32,000 nucleotides of DNA from Opitutia bacterium KCR 482 (GTDB lineage: Bacteria > Verrucomicrobiota > Verrucomicrobiia > Opitutales > Intestinicryptomonadaceae). The DNA lies in contig CP149973.1 of the NCBI GenBank assembly GCA_029269845.2, positions 2,100,001 to 2,132,000 of the forward strand. The letters are read 5' to 3'. Positions 11,447-12,771 of this stretch are shown here, piece by piece (within the stretch, counting starts at the first letter, position 1; every line of letters starts with the position of its first letter). A program made the translations under genes and the position numbers. Under the pieces are notes generated by a model that saw nothing but the letters and a program-made list of their open reading frames with translations, had not been told where the DNA came from and searched no databases.

Positions 11447-11728
11447 ATGCCCGTAGACAAAACACGCCTCGACGCGCGAAGGGAAATTTGCGCGAAACTA
11501 AAATCAAAGCTTGTCGAAAACCTCGACATTCCCTACAAGCCCGACGACCTTTCCGACGACATCTCGCTGATAGGTTCGGGGCTGGGCTTGGATTCGCTCG
11601 ACATTCTCGAAATCGTGCTGTGCGTGGAGAACAATTTTTCGGTCAAAATGCCCGAAGACAGCGCGCCCGTTCTGCGCTCGCTCAACACTCTTGTAGACTA
11701 CATAATCCAGCAGACGGAGGCGAAATGA
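11447..11728 (+). CDS. Acyl carrier protein (second ACP)
   Basis: MPVDKTRLDARREI...IGSGLGLDSLDILEIVL, with the phosphopantetheine Ser motif. 93 aa from the ATG at 11447. The stop overlaps the next start (ATGA at 11725-11728). Confidence 0.8.
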   Translation: MPVDKTRLDARREICAKLKSKLVENLDIPYKPDDLSDDISLIGSGLGLDSLDILEIVLCVENNFSVKMPEDSAPVLRSLNTLVDYIIQQTEAK

Positions 11729-12771
11729 GAAAACTGGCTCTTTCCGAAAAATGGGCGAAGTCCGGCGCAAAGTTCGGCGAAATCGCGGGCGCGGAGTGCG
11801 TTGAAAACTTCGGAGACGCCGCCGCGGAGCTTCGCGCAATCCGCCAGACGGCTGCTCTCTGCGACCTCTCGTTCTCCAAGATTTTCTCGTACGGCGAAAA
11901 CGAGGGCATCGACTTTCTCGACACCGTGCTTGCCGCAAACATTCTCAAACTGCGCTACGGCGGAATTATCGACACATTCCTTGCCGACGAAAACGGCGGC
12001 GTTCTCGCCGAGACTTTTGTGGGGAACATAGACGACAGGGTTTTGGTTGTCGCCGAGACCGAAGCCGAAAGCCTCCCGCTTGCGGTTTCCCCCGAATGCG
12101 ACATTACCGAAAACTGCGTTCTGCTTTCCGTAGACGGGCCGCTTGCGTGGAAAGTGGCGCGGGGCGTGTTCGGTTCCGACGTGCTGAACCTTTCGTTCCT
12201 TTCGCTCGAAAAATACGACTTCGAGGGCGCGGGCGTGATTCTCATGCGCAGCGGGCAGACGGGCGAATTCGGCTACCGCTTCGTTGTGCCGAATGCCGTC
12301 GCCGAGCCTTTCTGCGCCAAGCTGGAGGAACAGCTTGCCGCCGTCGGCGGACGCCTTTGCGGCTTCGACGCGCACAGAATAGCCCGCATGCAGGGCAACT
12401 TTTTCGACATTTACGAGGAGGGCGCGGTTGTGCGCAATCCGCTCGTTTTGGGGCTTCAATACATGGTCGATTTCGAAAAGGAATCGTTCGCGGGGTCGGA
12501 GGCGATTTTCGCGAACCGCGCGGCGGGCGTTTCCGAGCGCCTTGTCGGCGTGAAATTTTCCGCCGAAAACGTTTCCGACATCTACGACGGTTCGCGCAAA
12601 GTCGGGCGCGTCGCGGCGCGGCGCGGCGACATCGGGCTCGCTGTCTTCGACGCCGAATACGCGTGCGCGGGCTTTGCCTATTCCGCCGCTCCCGACGCCC
12701 ACGAAACGGTCTTTACAACGTCGCGTCCGTTCGTTCTCGCCGATAGCCTCTCGCGCGGAATGGAGGACTGA
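11725..12771 (+). CDS. GcvT-family (glycine cleavage T-protein / aminomethyltransferase-like) folate-binding-fold protein
   Basis: 348 aa from the ATG at 11725. It is collinear by eye with E. coli GcvT (sequence recalled from memory): [22 protein letters not shown] vs [37 protein letters not shown] vs [29 protein letters not shown] vs [22 protein letters not shown] vs EKLVGLVM. Confidence 0.8.
   Translation: [348 protein letters not shown]

Follow-up and report, generated by a model that had tools for sequence, protein, structure and literature searches.

A 32,000-nucleotide stretch of the genome of Opitutia bacterium KCR 482 (assembly GCA_029269845.2, contig CP149973.1, positions 2,100,001 to 2,132,000 of the forward strand), hereafter called the window, contains a lipid cluster in which a gene for an acyl carrier protein (ACP), named here ACP2, runs into a gene for a 348-aa protein resembling GcvT, the T-protein of the glycine-cleavage system. 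Our judgement, evenly balanced between belief and doubt, is that this protein is a CylF-like, GcvT-fold partner dedicated to ACP2 in a type II polyene-lipid synthase, and that it would dock on the ACP and act without folate. CylF is a putative aminomethyltransferase that is universally conserved in the granadaene (cyl) polyene operon (PMC6985545, PMC3674703). A preliminary description of this DNA, made from its sequence alone, knew of no role for GcvT-family proteins in type II fatty acid synthase (FAS) or polyketide synthase (PKS) clusters, and CylF of the cyl operon corrects it on this point (PMC6985545, PMC3674703).

Gene arrangement around ACP2

By direct reading of the sequence, the ACP2 gene (11447..11728, + strand) starts with the ATG at 11447 and stops with the TGA at 11726-11728 to encode 93 aa. 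The product matches PF00550 at E 1e-6 and contains GSGLGLDSLDILE (GSGLGLDSLD), whose DSL motif marks Ser50 as the phosphopantetheine serine; its best NCBIfam model is PRK09184, a phosphopantetheine-binding protein, with a score under the cutoff. The gene for the GcvT-like protein (11725..12771, + strand) begins with an ATG at 11725-11727 that overlaps the stop codon of ACP2 as ATGA. A GGAGG at 11716-11720 on the same strand, within the 3′ end of ACP2 and 4 nt ahead of this ATG, may act as a Shine-Dalgarno-like motif. The last gene of the operon encodes a FabG-type ketoreductase (KR; 12790..13536, + strand; adh_short_C2 E 1e-67, TIGR01830 268 bits) and starts 18 nt past the GcvT-like stop at 12771. 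Thus both the overlap of an ACP carrying GLGLDSLD with a 348-aa open reading frame (ORF) and the spacing of the KR are as the preliminary description had read them.

Compared with a 95%-identical orthologue from an Opitutia metagenome-assembled genome (locus L003), the GcvT-like gene has a dN/dS of 0.14, the mark of a real gene under purifying selection. This orthologue (Opitutia bacterium UBA4654, DHMA01000074.1, L003 8947-9990) is interrupted in frame at codon 245, where the conserved Gln of GLQW/Y has become a stop (CAA to TAA); this marks either a pseudogene in that assembly or a sequencing or assembly error, and 99%-identical copies of the gene are intact. At five positions that are otherwise highly conserved, the window copy and its 95% relative both differ from the family consensus (Y158F, K178Q, E223Q, W246Y and S302D), in spite of the purifying selection.

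Pairing with an acyl carrier protein in related loci

How constant is the pairing of the two genes? Scanning metagenomes with two family-specific peptide patterns gave 467 relatives of the GcvT-like protein, and 80 loci were kept and annotated by ORF extraction and BLASTP with the proteins of the window and its relatives; the close family of the window protein forms 25 clusters at 90% identity. Co-occurrence with an ACP gene, which the preliminary description had left to be counted in public genomes, is found almost without exception: of the 79 loci with more than 350 nt of upstream sequence, 78 show an ACP gene immediately before the GcvT-like gene and in the same orientation, and in the 79th (L001) the two are fused into one ACP::GcvT-like protein, P0022, to whose ACP domain ACP2 is orthologous. 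The loci include near-duplicates, and crude dereplication leaves the ACP in 42 of 45 distinct loci; the unfiltered list indicates that the loci lacking an upstream ACP call begin too near a contig end. The junction is also conserved. Among 57 loci with a placeable start, the commonest junction is an overlap of 4 nt between the ACP stop and the GcvT-like start (34 loci), followed by overlaps of 13 nt (10 loci) and 8 nt (two loci); in the other 11 the two lie 0-6 nt apart. Eight fusions with an N-terminal PP-binding domain were confirmed (P0022, P0076, P0153, P0159, P0163, P0208, P0228 and P0237), those of P0076, P0153, P0159 and P0163 by Pfam. The pairing goes far beyond chance. Invariant synteny, a conserved stop/start overlap and recurrent fusions support a functional tie of the GcvT-like protein to the ACP, and with such a tie the analogy to the carrier-protein/T-protein pair of glycine cleavage, which the preliminary description had drawn between ACP-GcvT-like and H-protein/T-protein, becomes reasonable.

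The surroundings of the pair are also alike. In the retrieved contexts of the close family, ACP and GcvT-like genes are usually followed by a 4HBT thioesterase gene, a KR gene or both; within 2.6 kb downstream in 60 loci, KR was found in 49, 4HBT thioesterase in 37 and a FabD-like acyltransferase (AT) in 32. On the opposite side stands, as in the window, an operon running from a family-2 glycosyltransferase (GT2) and an MMPL transporter to a fusion of ketosynthase (KS) and chain length factor (CLF), written below as KS::CLF.

Two further observations belong here. The cluster of ACP, GcvT-like, 4HBT and KR genes with the GT2-MMPL-KS module is found at 48-50% identity on human-gut metagenome contigs (L015-L025, for example L016 and L024), so that gut bacteria also carry this lipid pathway. 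And in relatives (L001, L002, L014, L016-L024 and many loci from peat or sediment, for example L002 12216-14177), the ACP/GcvT-like/KR genes are often flanked by a conserved module. Its members are a fusion of a flavodoxin-like FMN reductase with an SCP2/alkyl-sulfatase-C lipid-binding domain (FMN reductase::SCP2), an ApeP/ApeI-like dehydratase (DH), a PlsC-type acyltransferase and a DedA protein; the window lacks this module and carries a FabH gene on that side.

A GcvT fold apart from housekeeping GcvT and YgfZ

The preliminary description held the 348-aa protein to be collinear with GcvT along its whole length and proposed a PF01571 search. The GCV_T profile (PF01571) matches at E 4e-31, residues 1-284 align with 1-292 of T. 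maritima GcvT and residues 5-313 with 9-338 of B. subtilis GcvT, and an AlphaFold model (pLDDT 94.7, pTM 0.92) superposes on the GcvT structures 1yx2 and 1woo with Foldseek TM-scores of 0.86-0.87, so that collinearity is well founded. The correspondence of GGVLAETFV in this protein to GGVIDDLIV of E. coli GcvT, given in the same description, also holds in the alignment. The whole three-domain fold is thus in common with GcvT, together with the R-x-G-x-T-G-E-x-G-[YF] and RLE motifs and the pairing of the enzyme with a small carrier whose thiol arm swings. However, the carrier in the window is a phosphopantetheinyl ACP and not a lipoyl H-protein, and four of the five folate-contact residues are replaced. 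The scores against the NCBIfam GcvT equivalogs are also far under the cutoffs (TIGR00528, 70 bits against 236; NF001567, about 92 against 300; NF010093, 81 against 459), and neither the scanned window ORFs nor the gene lists of related loci contain a member of the GCV_H or GDC-P families, the products of gcvH and gcvP.

YgfZ and Iba57 provide a precedent for GcvT folds that no longer use folate (PMC9551070). They differ from the window protein in structure, with TM-scores of only 0.55-0.64 to the model; in sequence, as the KGC[YF]xGQE motif with their conserved Cys is absent from the 348 residues; and in context, as no link to Fe-S cluster genes is seen. The protein is therefore neither a housekeeping GcvT nor YgfZ and belongs to a clade apart from housekeeping GcvT.

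The wider superfamily and CylF

To which other proteins is this clade related? When the family profile was searched exhaustively with HMMER, 329 representatives were obtained at E<=1e-30, and clustering of the top hits yielded five groups: the window family, a large sister clade, two further non-canonical clades and a few canonical GcvTs. The sister clade has the motif GKTGE[FY]GY in common with the window family. In Sorangium sp. So ce145 and two metagenome contigs, its genes are arranged as TAT-signal protein, KS::CLF, ACP, GcvT-like, KR, AT and DH, and other members come, by source name, from Gemmatimonadota, Acidobacteriota and Myxococcales. Contexts of the third clade are from Ruminiclostridium papyrosolvens and other Clostridia, with the order 4HBT, AT, KR, ACP, DH, ABC, ABC2, GcvT-like, KS::CLF (about 813 aa), FMN reductase, GT2, 4HBT, GT28 and phosphopantetheinyl transferase. 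The cyl operon of Group B Streptococcus (GBS) reads cylX-D-G-acpC-Z-A-B-E-F-I-J-K (PMC4315905), and the third-clade order is the same without cylE. The fourth clade is represented by a single context of ACP, GcvT-like, KS and CLF.

Three of the clostridial loci (L092, L094 and L095) have the full cyl gene order without the CylE-type N-acyltransferase and carry two FMN-reductase genes and two glycosyltransferases; their clusters probably make a polyene glycolipid other than granadaene.

A tblastn search against plasmids found matches on megaplasmids of the Bacillus cereus group. On pBwiPL1-1 of B. wiedmannii, the GcvT-like gene is annotated as cylF by its depositors, its product is nearly identical to one third-clade member, and its neighbours encode a thioesterase, fabD, KR, ACP, fabZ, a 1038-aa GNAT-containing protein, DUF6365, an 818-aa KS::CLF and rmlABCD. 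Because one clade includes the cylF-annotated gene of a granadaene-type operon, there is a precedent for a GcvT-like gene in such clusters. All the contexts examined, in every clade, are KS(::CLF)/ACP/KR clusters; they were sampled from Verrucomicrobiota, Myxococcota, Clostridia and Bacillus plasmids, and by source name the range extends to Gemmatimonadota and Acidobacteriota.

Profile-profile comparison by hhalign scores the window family at 517 against the sister clade, 473 against the CylF clade and 328 against canonical GcvT, the last profile being built from six sequences. S333, S341, W142 and Q245 are derived characters found in the non-canonical clades, CylF and the window protein included, and missing from canonical GcvT; S341 is present in 127 of 128 representatives of three clades. 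The non-canonical clades also lack the equivalents of Glu204 and Arg233 of human GcvT, so that the pterin-binding Glu is lost in both the window protein and CylF. The synthase proteins are related as well: the window KS::CLF is collinear with the 818-aa cyl-type KS::CLF of Bacillus at 29% identity over 721 aa (E 2e-87).

The clusters around CylF, in GBS and in cyl-type clusters of Bacillus, Clostridia and Actinobacteria, thus resemble that of the window in having a GCV_T-family protein within a type II FAS-like polyene cluster with an approximately 800-aa KS::CLF, an ACP and a FabG-like KR, to which relatives of the window add a FabZ/ApeP-like DH, a FabD-like AT and a 4HBT thioesterase. There are clear differences. 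In cyl operons, cylF adjoins the KS gene and not the ACP gene, whereas members of the window family adjoin the ACP gene or are fused with it. Cyl operons carry CylE, rhamnose genes and an ABC exporter, which the window cluster does not have; GT2, MMPL, LolA-like and LpxL-like genes and a second ACP are found there instead. The CylE N-acyltransferase is a universal marker of cyl operons (PMC6985545), and neither the scanned ORFs of the window nor the related Verrucomicrobial loci showed a large GNAT-type CylE-like ORF. Unlike cyl, the window family occurs in Gram-negative phyla; its catalytic Asp position is still acidic, that of the CylF clade no longer so.

With moderate confidence, sequence comparison places the window protein as a member of a CylF-like superfamily and a distant relative of CylF, and, at the same confidence, this superfamily may be regarded as central to one class of type II polyene synthases. 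In the literature that could be searched, no later biochemical work on CylF was found, nor anything relevant on GcvT-like or aminomethyltransferase genes in aryl polyene (APE) or type II PKS clusters; the celluxanthene cluster was set aside as irrelevant, being a type I iterative PKS without a GcvT-like gene.

Folate-contact residues

Met56, Asp101, Tyr197 and Glu204 of human GcvT are invariant in the members of the fold that bind tetrahydrofolate (THF), namely GcvT, TrmE and DMGO, while Arg233 is specific to GcvT (PMC9551070). An audit of these five positions, which compares aligned residues rather than cavity geometry, finds most of them replaced. Met56 corresponds to Ser51 in the window protein (V/A/S/M/L in the window family). 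Tyr197 corresponds to Gln178, a position that is K/R in 36 of 38 window-family and 58 of 66 sister-clade representatives. Glu204 becomes Arg185 (Q/L/W and others in the family, D/L/H/E and others in the sister clade), and Arg233 becomes His217 (H/L in the family, L in the sister clade). Only Asp101 keeps its chemistry in the window, as Glu96, the family having E in 23 and D in 13 of 38 representatives and the sister clade D in 61 and E in five of 66. The CylF clade has I/L/S in place of Asp101. Behind the Asp strand, the Asn of canonical GcvT is replaced by Glu111 in 95% of 122 non-redundant sequences. Given these replacements, the pterin-recognising residues are not under the constraint of a folate enzyme, and new charged residues have come into the pocket.

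The preliminary description had suggested folate-dependent one-carbon or aminomethyl chemistry, and had named loss of the folate pocket as a finding that would speak against it. That suggestion is poorly supported, with most THF-contact residues replaced and the CylF clade lacking the Asp; as for the pocket, it is the replacement of residues that is found and that weakens the folate inference.

Proposed role and its alternatives

What, then, can a GcvT fold do beside an ACP? The synthase core would consist of KS::CLF, ACP and KR, the same core as in the granadaene operon, joined to an APE-style module of GT2, MMPL, LolA and acyltransferase proteins for anchoring and export. The GcvT-like protein may dock on holo- or acyl-ACP2 as T-protein does on H-protein, and the phosphopantetheine arm with its acyl chain may enter the central cavity, where lipoyl-lysine and folate sit in GcvT. 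A folate-independent step of chain assembly would be carried out or assisted there; we favour the holding or gate-keeping of the growing beta-keto/polyenoyl-ACP. Acid or base help could be given by residues specific to the family, namely Glu/Asp at position 96, Glu at 111 and Lys/Arg at 178, as well as by the C-terminal S-x-P-x5-S motif. Transfer of a one-carbon unit is no part of this role. The wider claim, that the GcvT fold now serves, independently of folate, as an enzyme or subunit that binds the phosphopantetheine arm of the ACP in a widespread class of type II polyene-lipid synthases, of which the window family, the Myxococcota/Gemmatimonadota sister clade and CylF would be versions of one component, we make more tentatively, at somewhat less than an even chance.

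Several points weigh against these proposals. An acidic residue at the Asp101 position is found in 36/38 window-family and 66/66 sister-clade representatives, and such a retained acid would look like the activator of folate N10. At K178Q, E223Q and W246Y, the window copy is at odds with the consensus of its family. An AlphaFold2 model of the natural fusion P0022 (pTM 0.75) has a disordered linker at 96-103 and yields no docking geometry. By BLAST, the window protein and Bacillus CylF are 24% identical (E 2e-21), and the score of 81 bits is not above that to canonical GcvT (median 91 bits); the link to CylF therefore rests on profiles, shared characters and context. The reference for CylF in these comparisons is the protein of the Bacillus wiedmannii plasmid and not S. 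agalactiae CylF. Finally, cylF mutants are reported to have only 'milder' phenotypes (PMC6920887), so that a CylF-type role may be an accessory one.

It is from the retained acid that the best surviving alternative draws its life: a folate-dependent enzyme that uses THF or 5,10-CH2-THF, as GcvT does, to add a one-carbon or aminomethyl group to an intermediate tethered to phosphopantetheine, or to take one off. The full-length GcvT fold is in its favour, as is the FMN reductase::SCP2 often near in relatives, whose flavodoxin-like reductase would fit a ThyX/TrmFO-like scheme of methylene plus hydride transfer. Still, we hold it to be unlikely: the equivalents of Met56, Tyr197, Glu204 and Arg233 are replaced, the catalytic Asp is lost in the CylF clade, none of the clusters seen has a folate-metabolism gene, and no methyl or aminomethyl feature is known for a product.

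A second alternative, to which we give slightly less credit again, is an enzyme of chain release or acyl transfer that would act on the product held by the ACP through the family-specific C-terminal serines (S333, S341) or through some other conserved residue. The near-universal S341, missing from canonical GcvT, would suit it, and the three sister-clade clusters examined have no thioesterase gene. Against this, 37 of 60 loci have a 4HBT-type thioesterase downstream, acyltransferases are also present, and no hydrolase-like catalytic triad is evident from sequence. We know of no precedent for the GcvT fold as an acyl hydrolase.

Suggestions for CylF itself have also been published. Whidbey et al. 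(2013) guessed that it makes a methylated derivative (PMC3674703), and Armistead et al. predicted for cyl operons that it makes ammonia for ornithine synthesis (PMC6985545). Applied to the window, CylF-type proteins would be true lipoate/folate aminomethyltransferases that act off the ACP and split glycine to supply ammonia for ornithine, or a one-carbon unit. This is very improbable here. The scanned window ORFs and the gene lists of related loci contain no CylE-like N-acyltransferase, ornithine gene, H-protein or P-protein, nor do the clusters have lipoate or folate genes. The folate residues are lost, and the GcvT-like protein is fused to ACP in several lineages; the fusions and synteny with ACP, together with occurrence where no ornithine chemistry is encoded, argue against both suggestions. 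As for a housekeeping GcvT or YgfZ beside lipid genes by chance, a reading that the preliminary description had also considered, it has the Pfam GCV_T match on its side and can practically be dismissed on equivalog scores of about 70-92 bits against cutoffs of 236-459, the poor fit to YgfZ/Iba57 in structure and motif, the conserved ACP synteny and the fusions.

The rest of the cluster and its surroundings

The dedicated ACP2 partner proposed here would work within a larger cluster. Divergently from the ACP2 operon runs a minus-strand operon in the order GT2, MMPL, LpxL-type, ACP1, KS, LolA-like, a protein of about 170 aa and KS::CLF. Between the two lies an AT-rich intergenic region (11359..11446), in which promoters are presumed; a scan of it for the sigma-70 consensus gave no match, and terminator-like matches were disregarded as they are located inside genes. 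The GT2 gene (10648..11358, - strand; PF00535 E 2e-16), first of the operon, had its start placed by tblastn with orthologues, as had both boundaries of the gene for the MMPL/RND (HpnN-like) transporter (8324..10651, - strand; PF03176, TIGR03480 E 1e-25). The LpxL-type lipid acyltransferase (7444..8319, - strand) is assigned by orthology, being 62% identical to an L004 orthologue that bears PF03279 Lip_A_acyltrans; the window copy itself has no Pfam match. ACP1 (7154..7417, - strand; 87 aa, GLGLDSVD) matches PF00550 at E 6e-9. The next gene (5076..7157, - strand) encodes a 693-aa KS fused to a Ketoacyl-synt_2-type second half (PF00109, PF02801, PF13723; PRK09185 273 bits, under the cutoff of 407). 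The LolA-like protein of about 187 aa (4516..5079, - strand; boundaries by tblastn with orthologues) matches PF03548 at E 4e-4, below the gathering score, and the conserved protein of about 170 aa (3984..4517, - strand, start approximate) is 40-48% identical to its L004 and L002 orthologues by tblastn and has no Pfam match. The 802-aa KS::CLF fusion (1595..4003, - strand; PF00109, PF02801; FabF model 354 bits) carries the active-site Cys (INTACSGS) in its N-terminal half and lacks it in its C-terminal half. Convergent with the KR is a FabH-type KS III (13538..14626, - strand; ACP_syn_III and ACP_syn_III_C; NF006829 256 bits, cutoff 249), which stands at the same position in L003, L004, L005 and L012.

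Proteobacterial APE clusters (ApeA-S) have two ACPs, KS/CLF pairs, KR, LolA-like and MMPL proteins, a glycosyltransferase and a lipid acyltransferase. The window has counterparts of all these, its PRK09185 KS matches being sub-cutoff, and ApeP/ApeI-like dehydratases are added in its relatives. In contrast to APE clusters, it shows no adenylating aryl-loading enzyme, aryl-starter gene or methyltransferase, and has FabH instead; among the window ORFs scanned there was no AMP-binding or lyase family, and no adenylating enzyme, lyase, methyltransferase, dehydratase or thioesterase. The APE clusters described so far do not, to our knowledge, include a GcvT-like gene. Of the 'APE-type' label in the preliminary description, the anchoring/export module, KS/CLF, two ACPs and KR can thus be kept, and the aryl starter cannot, as its genes are not present.

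Farther along the window, a phage-integrase-family gene (14626-15669, - strand; PF00589, E 5e-12) lies between FabH and a beta-helix protein gene, and since these two directly adjoin in L004 and L005, it looks like an insertion at the cluster edge. Two paralogues of about 525 aa with signal peptides and no Pfam match (18457-20031 and 20304-21893, both - strand) have near-identical C-terminal PEP-CTERM-like sorting tails (VPEPAEWAAIFGAIALG..RRRK), and three paralogues of this type are found at the equivalent place in L004 and L005. In a 690-aa protein (23827-25899, + strand), a WbsX-type glycosyltransferase-like domain is joined to an alpha/beta-hydrolase (BD-FAE/esterase) domain at the C-terminus; with glucuronyl esterase, rhamnosidase and sugar-isomerase genes as neighbours, the region resembles one for polysaccharide utilisation, without relation to the lipid cluster.

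Implications

Since about 2001, CylF has figured in the GBS haemolysin/pigment operon as a putative aminomethyltransferase. The window family would add relatives of CylF in several bacterial phyla, all inside KS::CLF/ACP/KR clusters and coupled or fused to an ACP, and so turn the question of what CylF does into that of a role as an ACP partner, which can be tested. The clusters come from Verrucomicrobia, from soil and peat bacteria and from human-gut metagenomes, and their GcvT-like component is, as far as known, missing from descriptions of APE-like clusters. If the proposal is true, it would introduce a new kind of ACP partner into polyketide and fatty-acid biochemistry and give a first mechanistic handle on CylF.

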